Source: Escherichia phage HK75
Sequence record: HM173637
DNA: 36,661 nt
Strand: one strand, 5' to 3'
The position numbers and the translations under genes were made by a program. Position 1 is the stretch's first letter; every line of letters begins with the position of its first letter. The notes beneath the pieces are model-generated. The model did not search any database. It saw only the letters and a list, made by a program, of their open reading frames with translations, and was not told the DNA's origin. Positions 21,066 to 34,117 of the stretch are shown in pieces.

Positions 21066-21079
21066 TTTAAATCAATAAG

Positions 21080-22240
21080 TTACCTAGCATTTAAGTAAAC
21101 TACGTTCTCCTCTTGTGCCGTATTTGTGCCATTGCGACTTATAATCGCATCGATTTTGCTCGCGTGCTCGGTGAGATGCCCGGCTGAAAGGTGGGCGTAT
21201 CTTTGAACCATTTCGAGAGTTTCCCATCCTCCCATCTCTTTAAGTGCAAGAAGAGAGACACCGGACTGAACCAGCCAGCTTGCCCAAGTATGCCTCAGGT
21301 CATGGAAGCGGAAGTTGCTAATGCCTGCCCGCTTTAACGCTCCCTTCCATGCCTTGTTGCTGTCGGTTCTCATCTTCCTTACCGATGCTGTTTTTGTTCC
21401 GTCGCTTCGGTAGGCAGGTTTGGTGTGGACAAACACCCATCTCTTATGGAGACCCTGCTGTTTTCTTAATATCTGGCATGCGGTTTCGTTAAGAGGAACT
21501 CCGATCGCATTGCCAGCTTTTGTTTCATCAGGGTGCATCCATGCCATTTTCTTATCCAGATCGACCTGTGACCACTCAAGGTCTGTAACGTTGGAACGGC
21601 GAAGGCCTGTCGTGATTGCAAACATGACCACAGGGAAGAAATGAGGAGCAATTTCTGCAAACAGGCGCTTCGATTCCTCCTCTGTAAGCCATCTGATCCG
21701 TCCATTCTTAACGCGTGGTGTTGATATTTTTGGCGCCCTGTCAAGCCATCCCCATTCAACAGCCATATTGAGAATAGCGCGAAGTATTGCCAGATGCCGC
21801 GTCTTCGTTCCTTTGCTTGCCAGCTTTGGTTTATACTCCGGCACTGGCTTGCCAAGCCGCAAACACCTGTCCCGGCTCATTTCCCAGTTCAGGCGATGGC
21901 GGCGGTTTTCCATCCCGTCTACCGCCTCCATTATTTTTTCTGATGTTATGTCTGAGAGAATGGTTTCTCTGAAGTGCAACATCCAGAACGATATAATGCT
22001 CTTGTCATCATCAATGGACTTCTTATCCGATTTCTCTCGCAGCCACCGTATGCAGGCTTCCTTGAATAGCTTTTTCGGTGATTCCCCGAGATTTTTTACT
22101 CTCCACGCTTCTGCTTTCAGACGATCGTGAAGTTCTTGCGCTTGCCTTTTGTCCGATGTTTCAAGAGAGCGTCTAACTCTTGATCCATCTGGCGCGACGA
22201 AATCACAGTGCCACGTGCCACCGCGTAGTTTGATTGACAT
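21080..22240 (-). CDS. int: Tyrosine integrase (P22-like, tRNA-Thr-specific)
   Basis: 386 aa; C-terminal FHDLRHTWASWLVQ...RYAHL with catalytic R-H-R-Y signature; recalled strong resemblance to P22 Int; adjacent to the tRNA-derived att core. Confidence 0.9.
   Translation of the reverse strand: MSIKLRGGTWHCDFVAPDGSRVRRSLETSDKRQAQELHDRLKAEAWRVKNLGESPKKLFKEACIRWLREKSDKKSIDDDKSIISFWMLHFRETILSDITSEKIMEAVDGMENRRHRLNWEMSRDRCLRLGKPVPEYKPKLASKGTKTRHLAILRAILNMAVEWGWLDRAPKISTPRVKNGRIRWLTEEESKRLFAEIAPHFFPVVMFAITTGLRRSNVTDLEWSQVDLDKKMAWMHPDETKAGNAIGVPLNETACQILRKQQGLHKRWVFVHTKPAYRSDGTKTASVRKMRTDSNKAWKGALKRAGISNFRFHDLRHTWASWLVQSGVSLLALKEMGGWETLEMVQRYAHLSAGHLTEHASKIDAIISRNGTNTAQEENVVYLNAR
21113..21128 (+). 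repeat. Integrase arm-type site candidate (P' arm)
   Basis: TTGTGCCGTATTTGTG, direct repeat of 20896-20911. Confidence 0.5.
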
Positions 22241-28033: not shown

Positions 28034-28195
28034 ATGACAAAACGTCGTAAGAAATACCAGGAAAAAGAAGAGATTCGACACCCTGATTCACCTGAGGGAT
28101 TAGTGGTAGCCGCAGCAAATAACAGGGCGTTCGCAGAGCGCCTTGTTGGTGTTTACAGACTAGCCAAAGCAGGAGTGAAACATGGGCGTCGTTAA
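28034..28195 (+). CDS. Small basic protein (53 aa), unknown
   Basis: ATG with GGAG RBS (28025-28028); Lys/Arg-rich N-terminus; below the ORF-track size cutoff. Confidence 0.3.
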   Translation: MTKRRKKYQEKEEIRHPDSPEGLVVAAANNRAFAERLVGVYRLAKAGVKHGRR

Positions 28196-28244
28196 GTTAG
28201 CTGATTACAGGCATAACCCTGTACAACATCAGGAGGCATCCAGT

Positions 28245-29072
28245 ATGGGGTATGTCTCTATACACCGCCAGTTTATGGACAGCAGGCTCTATAAGGACTC
28301 TCAGGCAGTACATCTTTGGCTTCACTTAATTCTCAAGGCTAATCACGAATCTACTGTCGTCAATACGGATATCGGGCCGATAACTGTTGATCGCGGTCAG
28401 ATGATAACTGGACGCCCGTCGCTGGTCAGAGAAACATTCATCCCCGACAACAAAGTTCGGAGCTTATTACGGACTTTTGAGTCGAAAGGGATGCTTAATA
28501 TTTGCTCGATGGGGAAGAAATTTAGCCTGTTTACAATCGTTAAATATGACGATTTTCAGGCAAAAAATTGTCCAACGGTTGTCCAACGGTTGTCCAACGC
28601 AAACACCAGTAATGGCGCGGCTCTCAGCGGAGATTGTCCAACGGTTGTCCAACGGTTGTCCATAAACAATAATATAAATAATATCTCTAATACTGACGTA
28701 TTAGAGAGTGCCACAGCAGACAAAAAGTCTGACAAGAAAAAACCTTCCGTTAGCTGTCAGGATGTTGTCGATGCTTACCACGAAATCCTTCCTGAAGCGC
28801 CAAAAATCCGCGCACTGAATGACAAGCGTAAAAACCAGATCCGAACGTTCTGGCGCAAAGCCGGAGTGATAACCCGCCAGCTTGACGGGCATGGGTTCAC
28901 GATGCAGGACTGGAGAAATTATTTGAGCTACGTAGGCGAAAATTGTCGATGGATGTTCGAAGAGCGTCCAAACCATCAACGCGGAACTGTCTGGCACAAA
29001 AAGGGATTTGATTTCCTGCTTAACGACAATACCTACCTGAAAGTTCGTGAGGGTGAACACGATGACCGATAA
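28245..29072 (+). CDS. Replication initiator (lambda O / P22 gp18-like) containing the origin iterons
   Basis: ATG 28245 with AGGAGG RBS; two clusters of three 11-bp iterons inside the coding region followed by an AT-rich stretch. Confidence 0.7.
   Translation: MGYVSIHRQFMDSRLYKDSQAVHLWLHLILKANHESTVVNTDIGPITVDRGQMITGRPSLVRETFIPDNKVRSLLRTFESKGMLNICSMGKKFSLFTIVKYDDFQAKNCPTVVQRLSNANTSNGAALSGDCPTVVQRLSINNNINNISNTDVLESATADKKSDKKKPSVSCQDVVDAYHEILPEAPKIRALNDKRKNQIRTFWRKAGVITRQLDGHGFTMQDWRNYLSYVGENCRWMFEERPNHQRGTVWHKKGFDFLLNDNTYLKVREGEHDDR
28568..28600 (+). repeat. ori iteron cluster 1 (3 x TTGTCCAACGG)
   Basis: Three tandem 11-bp direct repeats. Confidence 0.8.
28634..28666 (+). repeat. ori iteron cluster 2 (2 x TTGTCCAACGG plus degenerate TTGTCCATAAA) followed by AT-rich region
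   Basis: Tandem 11-bp direct repeats 33 bp after cluster 1; AT-rich 28667-28700. Confidence 0.8.
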
Positions 29073-30498
29073 TTTTTATGCGCCGCCCCATAGCATCGAG
29101 GCAGAGCAGGCGGTGATTGGTGGATTGCTTCTGGATGATGACAGCAGTGAGCGCGTCCAGAAAGTTCTGGCGATGCTGAAGCCTGATTCATTTTACAGCC
29201 GACCACACAAAATCCTTTTCGAAGAAATAACCAGAATGCACCGGGAGCAAAAGCCAGTAGATGGCCTGACGCTTTTCGATGAACTGGAGCGTAAATCGTT
29301 AACGGCGTCTGTTGGCGGTTTTGCTTATATCGCTGAGATCGCAAAGAGCACGCCAAGCGCAGCAAACATCGTTGCCTATGCAATGCAGGTTCGTGAAACC
29401 GCAATGGAACGCTACGCCATCAACCGCATGACTGAAGCGACGGAATTGCTCTATTCCCGCAACGGAATGACTGCAACGCAGAAGTACGAAGCTATTCAGT
29501 CGATTTTCACGCAACTGACAGACCATGCAAAAACAGGATCGCGTCGCGGCCTTCGCTCATTTGGTGAGGTCATGGAAGACTGGGTTAGCGACCTTGAGAA
29601 GCGATTTGACCCGTCAGGCGAACAACGAGGAATGAGCACAGGGATCCCATCGCTGGACAGGATGCTGTCACCGAAAGGTCTGGTGAAAGGCTCTCTGTTT
29701 GTCATTGGTGCTCGCCCTAAGATGGGGAAAACGACGCTATACAGCCAGATGGCAATCAACTGCGCAGTGCATGAGAAAAAGCCCGCTCTTATGTTCAGCC
29801 TTGAAATGCCAGGTGACCAGATACTGGAAAAACTGGTAGGGCAGAAGTCTGGTGTTAACCCGAATATTTTTTACCTTCCGGCGACAAATGACGCTGATGA
29901 CGGCTATCAGGGTGATTACGATGGTGACTTCAACAGGGCGATCGAAACAGCCAATCGCTTGAGTGAAATCGACCTGCTTTACATCGACGACACGCCGGGA
30001 TTATCTCTGGCTCAAATCGTCAGCGAAAGTCGTCGAATCAAGCGAGAAAAAGGATGTGTTGGCATGATTCTGGTCGATTACCTGACACTAATGACCGCTG
30101 AAAAGGCCGATCGCAACGACCTTGCTTACGGCATGATCACCAAAGGACTGAAGAACCTTGCCAAAGAGCTTGATTGCGTTGTTGTGCTTCTGACACAGCT
30201 TAACCGCGCACTGGAAAGCCGAACCAATAAACGCCCATTACCAAGTGACTCACGAGATACAGGGCAGATTGAACAGGATTGCGATTATTGGGTGGGGATC
30301 CATCGTGAAGGCGCTTTTGATGACAGTGTTCCACCTGGTGAAACTGAACTAATCCTTCGTCTCAATCGTCATGGCAATACCGGCACGGTGTATTGCATTC
30401 AGGCAAATGGCGCTATTTATGACACCGACCAACAGTCTGCTGAAATGCGCCGCCGTGAACGCGAGGAACCGCAGTCCAAGAAGAAAGGAGGATTCTGA
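29062..30498 (+). CDS. Replicative DNA helicase (DnaB family)
   Basis: About 479 aa; Walker A GARPKMGKT; DnaB N-terminal IEAEQAVIGGLL; start overlaps the initiator gene end. Confidence 0.85.
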   Translation: MTDNFYAPPHSIEAEQAVIGGLLLDDDSSERVQKVLAMLKPDSFYSRPHKILFEEITRMHREQKPVDGLTLFDELERKSLTASVGGFAYIAEIAKSTPSAANIVAYAMQVRETAMERYAINRMTEATELLYSRNGMTATQKYEAIQSIFTQLTDHAKTGSRRGLRSFGEVMEDWVSDLEKRFDPSGEQRGMSTGIPSLDRMLSPKGLVKGSLFVIGARPKMGKTTLYSQMAINCAVHEKKPALMFSLEMPGDQILEKLVGQKSGVNPNIFYLPATNDADDGYQGDYDGDFNRAIETANRLSEIDLLYIDDTPGLSLAQIVSESRRIKREKGCVGMILVDYLTLMTAEKADRNDLAYGMITKGLKNLAKELDCVVVLLTQLNRALESRTNKRPLPSDSRDTGQIEQDCDYWVGIHREGAFDDSVPPGETELILRLNRHGNTGTVYCIQANGAIYDTDQQSAEMRRREREEPQSKKKGGF

Positions 30499-30573
30499 TG
30501 ACCATCTACATCACTGAGCTAATAACAGGCCTGCTGGTAATCGCAGGCCTTTTTATTTGGGGGAGAGTAAATC

Positions 30574-30780
30574 GTGGCTGAGTTGATTTTCTCTGCATTG
30601 AGGATTCTCGGTGCTATGTGGATGGTGGCGACGTTCATTGTGGTTGCCAGCAGTTTTGTCCGGTTGGTAGGCGAAGGTAAAGACCTGGTTGGTGTGCTTT
30701 TCGGTAGCATTTTTCTGTGGGTGATTATCGGTGTTATGCCTGTCGCTGTAGCAAAAATGGCGTGGCGTTTTGTTAGTTGA
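30574..30780 (+). CDS. Small two-helix membrane protein, unknown
   Basis: 68 aa hydrophobic ORF (GTG start) after the helicase gene; a 27-codon hydrophobic ORF (30498-30581) precedes it. Confidence 0.3.
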   Translation: MAELIFSALRILGAMWMVATFIVVASSFVRLVGEGKDLVGVLFGSIFLWVIIGVMPVAVAKMAWRFVS

Positions 30781-30787
30781 GGTGACA

Positions 30788-31198
30788 ATGAAGCAAACAA
30801 TCTTCCTCCGAACTAAGCAACAACAGCAAGCTGCAATAAATGCCATCCTCGCAACACCACTCGATAAAGACAAGCCAGTCACCATCCGCATTACTGACTA
30901 CAAGCGCAACCTTGACCAGAACGCAAAATTTCACGTGATGCTGGCGGATATCGCTCGTCAGGTTCAATGGTGCGGCAAATGGTTAAAACCGGAACAATGG
31001 AAGGTTTTGTTGATCAGCGGTCATGCAGTGGCTACAAAGCAGGAAGCTGATGTTTTGCCCGGCCTTGAAGGCGAATACGTCAACATTCGCGAAAGCAGCG
31101 CGCAGATGAGCGTGAAGCGCATGGCAAGCCTGATTGAGTACACGACAGCATGGGCTATTGGTCAGGGTGTCAGATTTACCGACAGGAGGTACGAATGA
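30788..31198 (+). CDS. ninB: NinB recombination protein
   Basis: 136 aa from ATG 30788 (GAGGTGA RBS); core [33 protein letters not shown] resembles recalled lambda NinB. Confidence 0.8.
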
Positions 31199-31377
31199 GA
31201 CGACAACGACGAAGTTTCACCGACACCATCTGCGAAAACTGCAAATACCTTCCAACCAAACGCACCAGAAATAAACGCAAGCCAATCCCAAAAGAATCTG
31301 ACGTAAAAACCTTCAACTACACGGCTCACCTGTGGGATATCCGGTGGCTTAGAGAACGTGCGAGGAATACAAGGTGA
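31195..31377 (+). CDS. ninE: NinE-like protein
   Basis: 60 aa starting [18 protein letters not shown]; AGGAGG RBS; ATGA overlap with the ninB stop. Confidence 0.55.
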
Positions 31378-31544
31378 TTGACCCAAATCGAAGTTACGAA
31401 CAAGAAAGCGTCGAGCGGGCTTTAACGTGCGCTAACTGCGGTCAGAAGCTGCATGTGCTGGAAGTTCACGTGTGTGAGCACTGCTGCGCAGAACTGATGA
31501 GCGATCCGAATAGCTCAATGTACGAGGAAGAAGACGATGAGTGA
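31374..31544 (+). CDS. ninF: NinF-like zinc-ribbon protein
   Basis: 56 aa with CxxC...CxxC; GTG start overlapping the ninE stop; not in ORF track (<60 aa). Confidence 0.45.
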
Positions 31545-32259
31545 GTTAATGAATGGCAATGCCATCAAAATGACAAGCATTGAAATCGCTGAGTTGGTGG
31601 GTAAGCGTCATGACAATGTGAAACGTACCATCGAAACGCTGGCTAAAAATGGTGTTATCCGGCTTCCTCAAATTGAGGTTTCCGAAAGAATCAATAACTT
31701 AGGATTCAATGTTCAGTACGAGCATTACGTATTCGAAGGCGAACAAGGTAAGCGAGATAGTATTGTTGTTGTAGCCCAGTTGTCGCCGGAATTCACCGCT
31801 CGCCTTGTTGACCGCTGGCGAGAACTTGAAGACGCTGCGGTTAATATCCCCAAAACGCTACCAGAAGCGTTGCGCCTTGCTGCTGATCTTGCTGAGCAGA
31901 AAATGCAACTGGAAAACCAGCTCGCAATTGCCGCACCTAAAGTTGAGTTTGCCGATCGCGTTGGCGAGGCCAGTGGAATTTTGATTGGAAACTTTGCAAA
32001 GGTTGTTGGAATTGGTCCAAACAAACTGTTTGCGTGGATGCGCGATCACAAAATCCTTATTGCTTCAGGTTCCCGGCGCAATGTGCCAATGCAGGAATAT
32101 ATGGATCGCGGCTATTTCACAGTGAAAGAAACAGCGGTCAACACAAATCACGGAATACAGATATCGTTCACCACAAAAATCACCGGACGTGGCCAACAGT
32201 GGCTGACCAGAAAGCTGCTCGATAACGGAATGCTGAAAGTAACAGGGGAGGCTGCTTAA
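31537..32259 (+). CDS. Rha-family regulator / antirepressor (Rha N-domain plus ANT/KilAC C-domain)
   Basis: N-terminus MTSIEIAELVGKRHDNVKRTI typical of Rha; C-terminal FAKVVGIGPNKLFAWMRDHKIL typical of the ANT domain. Confidence 0.7.
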   Translation: MSELMNGNAIKMTSIEIAELVGKRHDNVKRTIETLAKNGVIRLPQIEVSERINNLGFNVQYEHYVFEGEQGKRDSIVVVAQLSPEFTARLVDRWRELEDAAVNIPKTLPEALRLAADLAEQKMQLENQLAIAAPKVEFADRVGEASGILIGNFAKVVGIGPNKLFAWMRDHKILIASGSRRNVPMQEYMDRGYFTVKETAVNTNHGIQISFTTKITGRGQQWLTRKLLDNGMLKVTGEAA

Positions 32260-32549
32260 TGGCTAACCTACGCAAAGAAGCACGCGGCAGAGAATGCCAG
32301 GTACGTATTTACGGCGTATGCAATGGCAACCCTGAAACTACAGTTCTGGCACATTACCGGATGGCTGGAATTTGCGGAACGGGAATGAAGCCTGACGACC
32401 TGATCGGCGCATGGGCTTGTAGCGCGTGTCACGATGAAATCGACCGACGCACCCATAACCTCGACAACAAAGACGCCAGACTTTACCACCTCGAAGGCGT
32501 GATCAGGACGCAGGCGATACTGCTGAAGGAGGGAAAGATTAAGCCATGA
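32259..32549 (+). CDS. DUF1364-type protein (YbcO-like)
   Basis: 96 aa, RGRECQVRIYGVCNGNPETTVLAH...ACSACHDEIDRRTH resembles recalled E. coli DLP12 YbcO; directly upstream of rusA as in DLP12. Confidence 0.65.
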   Translation: MANLRKEARGRECQVRIYGVCNGNPETTVLAHYRMAGICGTGMKPDDLIGAWACSACHDEIDRRTHNLDNKDARLYHLEGVIRTQAILLKEGKIKP

Positions 32550-32908
32550 ACGAATATCAGTTTGTGCTTCCATACCCGCCGTCGGTGAATACCTACTGGC
32601 GAAGACGAGGAAGCCAATACTACATCAGCGATAAAGGCCAGAAATACCGAAAAGACGTTCAGCAAATCATCCGCCAACTTAAGTTAGACATTTTCACCAA
32701 ATCACGACTCCGCATCAAAGTCATCGCAGACGTTCCAGACTCCCGCCGCCGCGACCTCGATAACATCCTGAAAGGTTTACTCGACTCACTTATCCACGCC
32801 GGATTTGCGGAAGACGACGAGCAATTCGATGACATTCGCGTAATTCGTGGTGTGAAAGTACCAGGCGGACGGCTTGGAATAAAAATCACCGAACTGGAGA
32901 ACGCATGA
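32546..32908 (+). CDS. rusA: RusA Holliday junction resolvase
   Basis: 120 aa, conserved DSRRRDLDNILKGLLDSL and C-terminal GGRLGIKITE. Confidence 0.85.
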   Translation: MNEYQFVLPYPPSVNTYWRRRGSQYYISDKGQKYRKDVQQIIRQLKLDIFTKSRLRIKVIADVPDSRRRDLDNILKGLLDSLIHAGFAEDDEQFDDIRVIRGVKVPGGRLGIKITELENA

Positions 32909-33093
32909 ACGCCACAATTCAAACGATACCAGAGCTTCTTATCCAGACGCGAGGCAATCAGACCGAAGTGGCGAGGATGCTTTCCTGCGCAAGAGGAACA
33001 GTGCTCAAGTACAACCGAGACAGCAAAGGCGAGCGTCACGTAATAGTTAACGGCGTCCTGATGGTCAAACAGGGCAAAAGGGGAAGACGATGA
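32905..33093 (+). CDS. ninH: NinH-like small DNA-binding protein
   Basis: 62 aa, GNQTEVARMLSCARGTVLKY resembles recalled lambda NinH. Confidence 0.55.
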   Translation: MNATIQTIPELLIQTRGNQTEVARMLSCARGTVLKYNRDSKGERHVIVNGVLMVKQGKRGRR

Positions 33094-33608
33094 GCATAAG
33101 AGAGCTAAACCTCACCAAAGAACAGCACGATTGGCTGAATTGCTGGCTTGAACTGTGGGGCGCATGGGTTTATTCAGGTCGTCTGGAAAAGCGCATGAGC
33201 AGCGTAATAGCGAAGTTCATGGAGAGCGTAGAGCCGGGAAGAGTTATGACAAGGCCAATGTGCAATGATGATGATGGAATGTTGATTTCTCAGGTCGTCG
33301 ATTCCGTCATGTACATTGACAAGAAAGCCTTCGGCATCCTCCTCAGCTACTACGCTCATGGTTCATCTAAGCGAGCAATTGCATCCTACTATCACGCGAC
33401 TGCAAAGCCACGCAAGATGTGTGGACGTGGTGGCGAGGGATGGAGAAAACCTTCACTGGCAACCTGTAGAAACGAAATTGACGACATCCTGAAAGCGTCG
33501 TTATTTGTTTTGTACCAGCCAATGCAAAATGCTTTCAAAATGCGTAAACGTGTTGAGAAAGTTAAGCATGTTGCTGTTAAAAGCCTTGACATGCAATTAT
33601 CCATTTAG
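33090..33608 (+). CDS. Putative late-gene antiterminator (Q-like)
   Basis: 172 aa, last gene before a strong promoter-hairpin-T-run unit and the lysis cassette; several Cys; position-based call. Confidence 0.4.
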   Translation: MSIRELNLTKEQHDWLNCWLELWGAWVYSGRLEKRMSSVIAKFMESVEPGRVMTRPMCNDDDGMLISQVVDSVMYIDKKAFGILLSYYAHGSSKRAIASYYHATAKPRKMCGRGGEGWRKPSLATCRNEIDDILKASLFVLYQPMQNAFKMRKRVEKVKHVAVKSLDMQLSI

Positions 33609-33615
33609 CCATAAT
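33586..33615 (+). promoter_or_regulatory. pR'-like late promoter
   Basis: TTGACA (33586-33591), 18-bp spacer, CATAAT (33610-33615). Confidence 0.45.
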
Positions 33616-33625
33616 TAGAAGGTAA

Positions 33626-33667
33626 GCTGCCGTTAGTGACTCTTAAGTTGCAACGGTGGCTTTTTTT
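33626..33667 (+). terminator. tR'-like terminator shortly downstream of the late promoter
   Basis: GC-containing inverted repeat (GCCGTT...AACGGTGGC) followed by TTTTTTTGTTTG. Confidence 0.4.
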
Positions 33668-33745
33668 GTTTGCACAACAGGTAAGAGCATTGAACCCGCA
33701 GACCTCGCGGAATTGGTGAAAGGTGCCGCGCAGTGCTCTTATCGA

Positions 33746-33872
33746 TGTGGTGAAGCTCAATGGCGAGCTAACAGATAGGCGACAGTGAAAATACTAGTCA
33801 TGTAGCTGACCGCCGCGCGTACTGCAATCGGCAGCGCACCGATGGAAGCCGGTTCGATTCCGGCCGCCACAA
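33746..33872 (+). pseudogene. tRNA-like element / disrupted tRNA (all four arms present, ~59-nt insertion between D-arm and anticodon arm)
   Basis: Acceptor TGTGGTG pairs 7/7 with CGCCACA; D-arm GCTC-AATGGC-GAGC; anticodon-like arm ATCGG-CAGCGCA-CCGAT; T-arm GCCGG-TTCGATT-CCGGC; lacks U8 and U33. Confidence 0.3.
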
Positions 33873-34117
33873 CCCAAACTGAGCCGTAGCCACTGGCTAT
33901 CCTGAATTCATCAGTGATAGTTACGCTGCGGCCTTCTACACATGACCTTCGTGAAAGCGGGTGGCAAGAGGCTGCGCTAACAACCTCCTGCCGTTTTGCC
34001 AGTGCATATCGGTCACGAACAAATCTGATTACTAAACACAGTAACCTGGATTTGTTCTATCAGTAATCGACCTTATTCCTAATTAAATAGAGCAAATCCC
34101 CTTATTGGGGGTAAGAC

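Follow-up and report, generated by a model that had tools for sequence, protein, structure and literature searches.

The nin-region gene roi of Escherichia phage HK75, with a candidate Roi operator and an IHF consensus inside its hypervariable helix-and-wing segment

The gene that lies between ninF and ybcO in Escherichia phage HK75 is, judged by its sequence, roi, the orthologue of HK022 Roi and a standard nin-region component in many lambdoid phages. We assign it to the Roi orthologue group because of its sequence, its synteny and the IHF consensus that lies inside the gene. The protein probably acts as Roi does in HK022, that is, as a dimer that would sit on an intragenic dyad with IHF alongside and limit expression of roi and possibly read-through toward Q. 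The window analyzed here is the whole stretch of 36,661 nucleotides (sequence record HM173637), to which all coordinates refer, and the roi coding sequence occupies positions 31537-32259 on the plus strand, stop codon included.

Results

An earlier note on this DNA had reported an open reading frame of 240 amino acids on the plus strand, and it is present exactly as described, starting with ATG; the reading frame and its identity to annotated roi genes together support the gene call. A megablast search against phage records returned 218 records, the best of which were 97-99% identical at the nucleotide level, and curated records name the gene "roi: DNA-binding protein Roi" (HK620, Stx2 phage 86, PA28, P27 and TL-2011a). 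Annotated roi genes are also found in H-19B, 933W-type Stx phages, HK140, HK633 and Gally. The last of these is a prophage of LF82 in which roi has been listed among five transcriptional regulators, and it carries the same roi allele as the window. The gene call itself is thus already known, as roi has been named since 1996 and is annotated in hundreds of phage records. In a BLASTP comparison, the window protein and HK022 Roi shared 210 of 241 residues (87%, E = 2e-157); residues 64-240 are almost identical and nearly all differences fall within residues 21-63. The phage as a whole is an HK022-like siphovirus: using 24.7 kb of the window (12000-36661) as a query, mEpX2, HK022 and HK542 covered 72-75% of it at ~96% identity. 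Among complete E. coli genomes, 1110 of 5426 (about a fifth) contain roi, and near-identical members of the protein family run into the thousands and go by the names "DNA-binding protein", "Roi" and "phage antirepressor KilAC domain-containing protein". HK022 Roi is described as a DNA-binding protein that affects lytic growth in IHF mutants (Clerget and Boccard, 1996, J Bacteriol 178:4077; PMC178163).

The gene had been placed between NinF and the YbcO-RusA pair, which the annotation of the neighbors bears out. Upstream lie NinB (30770-31198), NinE (31150-31377) and ninF (31374-31544, plus strand, Pfam NinF), and directly downstream ybcO (32259-32549, plus strand) opens a junction-nuclease module whose second gene is rusA (32546-32908, plus strand), with NinH (32905-33093) and Q (33090-33608) beyond it. 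With the replication gene P on one side and Q on the other, roi comes directly before the slot for the junction nuclease. The order in lambda is ninF, ninG, ninH, with no gene between ninF and ninG. The earlier assignment of our gene to the position of ninG is right insofar as the window has roi, ybcO and rusA where lambda has ninG; it is the ybcO-rusA pair, however, that stands in the ninG slot, while roi is an additional gene ahead of it. Similarly, the description of the gene as inserted is apt relative to lambda only, whereas the arrangement is standard in HK022, HK620 and many other lambdoid phages. HK022 roi occupies the equivalent place, the synteny is also common to HK620 and Stx-phage roi, and the order ninF-roi-ybcO was the commonest among 94 loci (77 cases), with ninF-roi-ninG in seven. 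roi is therefore a standard lambdoid module, neither novel nor an unusual insertion.

We then considered the signals that would govern expression of the gene. The ATG of roi lies inside the end of ninF with an 8-nt overlap (ATGAGTGA), and its TAA stop overlaps the ATG of ybcO by one base (TAATG). A tR2-like intrinsic terminator is found at 30527-30560 on the plus strand, upstream of the nin genes, where the HK620 annotation has tR2 at the equivalent position, and a pR'-like promoter is located at 33586-33615, after Q. Between the tR2-like terminator and Q, a promoter scan gave no promoter-like site ahead of roi on either strand, which suggests that only antiterminated transcription from pR reaches roi; a terminator scan gave no terminator that isolates roi. 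The overlaps of its start and stop with ninF and ybcO further suggest that Roi would be made only once pR is already derepressed and transcription has run past tR2. As predicted from these signals, roi is expressed solely within the delayed-early pR-nin-Q transcript and is translationally coupled to its neighbor ninF. No LexA box, allowing one mismatch, occurs in 30000-34000, and the window total of 18 compares with 12.4 expected by chance. The phage CI (26567-27385, minus strand) combines an HTH_3 domain with a Peptidase_S24 self-cleavage domain, so that it should be RecA-inducible by self-cleavage and induction of this phage would need no antirepressor. In some O157 Stx2a prophages roi is interrupted by IS629, which implies that the gene is dispensable for lysogeny.

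The two domains that the earlier note had named, a Rha N-domain and an ANT/KilAC C-domain, were both recovered by Pfam above their gathering thresholds. The match to Phage_pRha (PF09669) covers residues 12-98 (31570-31830, plus strand) with E = 9.1e-09 and 36.2 bits against a threshold of 29.9 bits, and the match to ANT/KilAC (PF03374) covers residues 126-228 (31912-32220, plus strand) with E = 7.8e-33 and 113.5 bits against a threshold of 25.3 bits. PHROG 63, "anti-repressor Ant", matches the 240-residue protein with E = 1.3e-98. A search of PDB sequences with the Roi protein gave no match at E values up to 1, and among the PADLOC defense-system models neither Roi nor YbcO was matched. We obtained an AF2 model of Roi from a 29-sequence alignment, in which the N-domain is predicted with a pLDDT of ~90 to form a helix-turn-helix with a wing, the winged-helix fold expected of PF09669. 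The predicted elements are a strand at 11-13, helices at 14-21 and 25-37, the latter being the putative recognition helix, and a β-hairpin wing at 45-67 (strands 45-52 and 58-67), followed by helices within 68-102. Beyond the N-domain, the model has a long helix of lower confidence (108-132), a disordered link (132-145) and the KilAC domain, which is predicted to contain an HTH-like helix pair (150-157 and 161-170), a β-hairpin (194-215) and a last helix. The DNA of the KilAC half is 98-99% conserved across roi alleles. The best explanation of this architecture, which we regard as likely when taken as a whole, is that the MerR-like winged helix at the N terminus is a sequence-specific DNA reader and that KilAC, at the C terminus, serves as a nearly invariant effector or as a second HTH module.

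The variable part of the gene is confined to a hypervariable cassette of ~135 bp at 31597-31731 on the plus strand, which encodes residues 21-65, i.e., the recognition helix and wing. Initial scans yielded seven loci in genome contigs and 80 copies of one allele in viral contigs; the allele diversity was assembled by exact-protein look-ups together with scans that used distant homologues. Among close relatives, residues 21-65 fall into at least nine allele classes, between which the cassette is 46-65% identical at the nucleotide level, versus 90-99% in both flanks. The roi of the window is allele A, the HK620 type, and HK022 roi belongs to a different class, E, in its helix and wing (residues 21-63).

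Roi of HK022 is reportedly a helix-turn-helix DNA-binding protein whose target lies inside the roi gene itself, in close linkage with an IHF site, and its binding is said to be stabilized by IHF; roi missense mutations reportedly allow growth on IHF-deficient hosts, and the C-terminal half of the protein is said to resemble P1 Ant1 and KilA. In the window, a perfect 13-bp dyad, CCTCAA-A-TTGAGG, lies within the cassette at 31666-31678, across the codons for P44-Q-I-E-V48, and is a candidate allele-specific Roi operator. From one class to another the sequence of the dyad differs and its symmetry is kept; perfect arms of 6-7 bp recur at the same codon position in classes whose sequences are different. 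CCTCAA-A-TTGAGG is found in class A (CCTCAAATTGAGG), in class D, where the arms extend to 7 bp, and in the allele of locus L180. Class C has a perfect CCTGCA-T-TGCAGG and class E, as against the window, CTGCA-T-TGCAG with 5-bp arms (both CCTGCATTGCAGG); class H has TCCCCCA-A-TGGGGGA with 7-bp arms (CCCCCAATGGGGG), class I a perfect ACTCCG-C-CGGAGT (ACTCCGCCGGAGT), and loci L097 and L098 TCCTGCA-A-TGCAGGA with 7-bp arms. Distant relatives carry GCTCAA-A-TTGAGC (L006 and L184), GCGCCA-T-TGGCGC (the L197 group) or TCAGCCA-T-TGGCTGA (L243 and L254). Allele B, the most abundant in E. coli, and allele F have one mismatch each, and allele G has neither the dyad nor the IHF core.

Counted over 15 non-redundant classes, 13 have at least five of six complementary pairs at the same aligned centre, while in the background, taken from 24-nt windows in the same genes, 13% reach this level at any centre. 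When synonymous codons were resampled with the protein held fixed, P ranged from 0.001 to 0.29 per class, and the Fisher combined P was ~7e-7, a value that is optimistic because the allele classes have common ancestry and are not fully independent. The window and L180 are only 61% identical over the 96 nt upstream of the dyad, yet their 13-mers are identical and the IHF core is kept in both. Moreover, the class of the recognition helix tracks the class of the half-site, also in the distant relatives: [KTL]-R-[TV]-I pairs with CTCAA, K-[IV]-S-I with CTGCA, K-Q-S-I with CCCCA and SDV[KR]RS with GCCA, an association that could be simple linkage since helix and half-site are encoded 30-60 nt apart. 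The dyad could be destroyed by synonymous mutations. The window holds no other copy of it beyond chance, and additional Roi operators at pR, pL, pR' or ori were rejected on that ground. An inverted repeat at 31742-31754 and 31797-31809 was also dropped as a Roi site; its arms are imperfect (85%) and 42 nt apart, and it is uninformative because the DNA there is conserved in all alleles.

Ten nucleotides downstream of the dyad, at 31689-31701 on the plus strand, the sequence AATCAATAACTTA fits the IHF core consensus perfectly; the 36.6-kb window has only one other perfect match to the pattern WATCAANNNNTTR. In HK022 the sole WATCAANNNNTTR match in 10.7 kb falls at the homologous nucleotide of roi, so that at the level of the consensus the gene has the IHF site that is characteristic of the Roi group. 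Across seven classes, only the N positions of the consensus differ (TAAC, TGAT, TGGG); the Ile codon is ATC in all seven, versus 34% elsewhere in roi, and the Leu codon is TTA in all seven, versus 5% elsewhere in roi. All 67 unique sequences with the wing peptide IN.L contain the core, compared with 0 of the 46 others, and since peptide and core always co-occur, constraints on protein and on DNA are not fully separable here. The core is also missing from allele H and from the distant classes. Taken at face value, the IHF core and the dyad inside the cassette behave as if they were selected at the DNA level, and from the same alignments we infer that the dyad at 31666-31678 is a candidate Roi binding site.

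Discussion

The arrangement described above suggests a simple working model for Roi. A Roi dimer would bind the dyad inside the part of the reading frame that encodes its own recognition helix and wing, and IHF would occupy the adjacent core, bend the DNA and stabilize the Roi complex. Because such a complex would sit inside the only transcript leading from pR to Q, its simplest consequence would be autoregulation of roi, perhaps with throttled read-through to Q; this autoregulation or roadblock is speculative. Without IHF the complex would be loosened and control lost, and Roi might then rise to levels that inhibit lytic growth.

The dyad could instead be a small RNA or DNA hairpin (a 5-bp stem with a 3-nt loop), a by-product of the peptide P-x-[ILM]-x that opens the wing, or a target for another factor. 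Roi would then bind elsewhere in roi, for example at the conserved palindromes 31553-31565 or 32115-32127; the gene contains three perfect 6+1+6 palindromes, so that other candidates are available. The amino acids alone do make about half of the pairs complementary, and the resampled P for six of six pairs is 1-3%, versus 0.02% for random DNA. We nevertheless consider this family of explanations unlikely. The local RNA fold at the dyad is no better than that of shuffled sequence (z = -0.17), for which reason the RNA hairpin was rejected, and alleles B and F carry C/T mismatches, which wobble pairing does not rescue. The class-specific sequences with preserved symmetry argue against the site of a host factor, and the dyad adjoins the conserved IHF core, in keeping with the reported close linkage of Roi target and IHF site.

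Two further alternatives concern the KilAC domain. The earlier note had proposed that proteins of this type inactivate repressors of co-resident prophages or act in inter-phage conflict, and in this scheme Roi would use its KilAC domain to inactivate a CI-type repressor of its own or a co-resident prophage, leading to cross-induction or positive feedback. KilAC is common to P1 Ant1 and Ant2, for which an interaction with the C1 repressor has been reported (cited in PMC9043618), PHROG and RefSeq label the family "anti-repressor", and in Salmonella the coordination of polylysogens by antirepressors acting in trans is documented (PMC3121763). On the other hand, PMC9043618 describes the roles of the KilAC and AntA/B domains as unclear, and our survey of the literature gave only passing mentions of roi and neither an experiment showing antirepressor activity of Roi nor a repressor-binding experiment for Roi or its close relatives. 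The functional antirepressors P22 Ant, P1 Ant1/2, Gifsy GfoA/GfhA, 186 Tum and N15 AntC differ from Roi in both hallmarks that we could assess. Such genes form regulated units of their own (LexA-, Mnt/Arc- or antisense-controlled), which allows the product to appear in a still repressed prophage, whereas roi has no promoter, LexA box or regulatory isolation and overlaps its neighbors at start and stop; and the cognate repressor is typically, though not universally, one that does not cleave itself, which makes induction dependent on the antirepressor, whereas the CI of this phage is of the S24 type. Furthermore, the variable part of Roi is the DNA-reading helix and wing, and, in the aligned roi genes, KilAC hardly varies between phages whose other modules differ, the opposite of what would be expected for a repressor-specific antagonist. 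The proposal thus finds no support in the window and we regard it as very improbable; for Roi, "antirepressor" is a homology label only. In the other alternative, modeled on AriS of Listeria phage phi10403S, the N-domain would regulate phage genes while KilAC dampens the host SOS response, probably via RecA, and so aligns co-resident prophages. Lysis and the transcription of SOS genes are both blocked when the AriS KilAC domain is overexpressed by itself, two further KilAC proteins that differ in their N-domains act likewise, and AriS-like proteins have AntA/B, Bro-N or pRha N-domains (PMC9043618). The architecture of Roi is exactly pRha plus KilAC, and the extreme conservation of its KilAC domain would fit a conserved host target. 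However, the effect was shown in Firmicutes and on overexpression only, and at the native level deletion of KilAC left SOS transcription unchanged (PMC9043618). In addition, Roi and AriS are related at the level of common Pfam membership, and there is little obvious benefit in an SOS shutdown by a late pR-operon protein once the phage has been induced. We therefore consider an AriS-like role quite unlikely, although it would be compatible with the model of Roi and IHF on an intragenic operator.

A comparison with known systems places Roi among phage proteins that pair related domains in different ways. Rha of phi80 and orf201 of P22 likewise block lytic growth in IHF-defective hosts and are regulated by IHF (Henthorn and Friedman, 1995). 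They share with Roi the N-domain family PF09669 and the IHF-mutant growth block, with the qualification that Roi scores modestly (36 bits) against the Rha profile; in contrast to roi, both genes lie elsewhere in the genome, that of P22 having been described as part of a late operon. The Ant proteins of P1 are expressed from immI, a region under control of its own. They have an AntA/AntB N-domain (PMC9043618), whereas that of Roi is of the Rha type and roi is not separately controlled. What P1 Ant1/Ant2 and KilA have in common with Roi is the C-terminal KilAC family PF03374 (E = 8e-33 for Roi), and it is from this similarity that the label "antirepressor" derives. AriS resembles Roi in joining a variable regulatory N-domain, proposed to regulate the phage's own genes, to KilAC as the conserved C-terminal part (Azulay et al., 2022, PMC9043618); it differs in belonging to a phage of another host phylum and in that neither an intragenic operator nor a link to IHF has been described for it.

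These distinctions matter because databases increasingly relabel roi as "antirepressor" from domain homology alone, a label that invites wrong inferences about cross-induction of prophages, including Shiga-toxin phages, in which roi precedes Q and the late genes that depend on it. If Roi gates read-through to Q, the timing of lysis or the release of toxin could be affected.

It is tempting to speculate that the ~135-bp segment of roi is a self-contained specificity cassette comprising the helix and wing together with the dyad operator that they would read and the IHF site, an idea that we hold as a serious possibility, somewhat short of probable. The literature that could be searched contained no description of such a cassette, and a helix-and-wing segment equipped with an IHF core and with a dyad specific to its class may be new. 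If the idea holds true, lambdoid phages would swap reader and target as one unit and the two would diversify in concert, much like a miniature immunity region nested within one open reading frame, and each phage could own a private Roi-IHF switch between pR and Q.

Candidate protein-binding sites within and beyond roi

The IHF consensus that overlaps the wing-coding DNA of roi (the IHF core, window 31689-31701) is absent from allele G (L093) and allele H (L094) of the hypervariable cassette, as well as from distant classes such as L197, L243 and L006. Allele G also lacks the candidate operator dyad, and allele H keeps a perfect dyad with 7-bp arms. As some roi alleles are without the IHF core, these sequence comparisons suggest that IHF dependence may be confined to the subfamily of roi genes encoding the IN.LG wing peptide.

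Counting the dyad at 31666-31678, the 723-nt roi gene holds 3 of the 11 perfect 6+1+6 palindromes in the window (Poisson P ~0.0014). The other two are ATGGCA-A-TGCCAT at 31553-31565, which is restricted to alleles A-E, and TTTCAC-A-GTGAAA at 32115-32127, which lies in DNA conserved across all close alleles (A-I). Both could be extra protein sites, for instance for the conserved KilAC/HTH domain.

Besides that of roi, the only perfect IHF consensus in the window is AATCAATAAGTTA at 21070-21082, adjoining the minus-strand integrase ORF (21080-22240) at its 3' end, and it is probably part of an attP arm. Repeats are found inside the O-like replication gene (28182-29072), where two clusters (28567-28600 and 28633-28666), each of three 11-bp iterons (TTGTCCAACGG), encode the repeated peptide CPTVVQRLS and presumably constitute the replication origin.

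Gene content and mosaicism around roi

Between the tR2-like terminator and ninB lies a small hydrophobic ORF of 68 aa (30574-30780), which matches PHROG 1165, a group of unknown function, with an E value of 3.5e-37; no Pfam family was found for it. At the other end of the region, the Q antiterminator (33090-33608) is a 172-aa protein of the PF06530/DUF1133 type, whereas the Q genes of HK620 and HK022, compared by length only, are 624 nt long (~207 aa). PF03589-type Q proteins of 207 aa and 254 aa are encoded in two other roi-bearing loci (L096 and L090, respectively). Since Q thus differs in type and length between roi-bearing loci, there is a mosaic junction directly after the conserved ninH.

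Four odd gene products were noted among the Roi homologues outside the window (P0006, P0007, P0001 and P0002). Two are 294-aa NinB-Roi fusions, with the N terminus of NinB joined to Roi at the recognition helix, and the other two are N-terminally extended forms of 304 aa; all may be deletions or gene-calling artefacts.

Some relatives carry further genes of regulator or antirepressor type flanking roi (L093 1722-2426; L095 2076-2504 and 4487-5729), whose products comprise an ORF6N protein resembling P22_AR, a second Rha protein, and two more proteins, one of the Bro-N and one of the AntA+KilAC type. The nin region is therefore a collecting point for domain-shuffled regulators.
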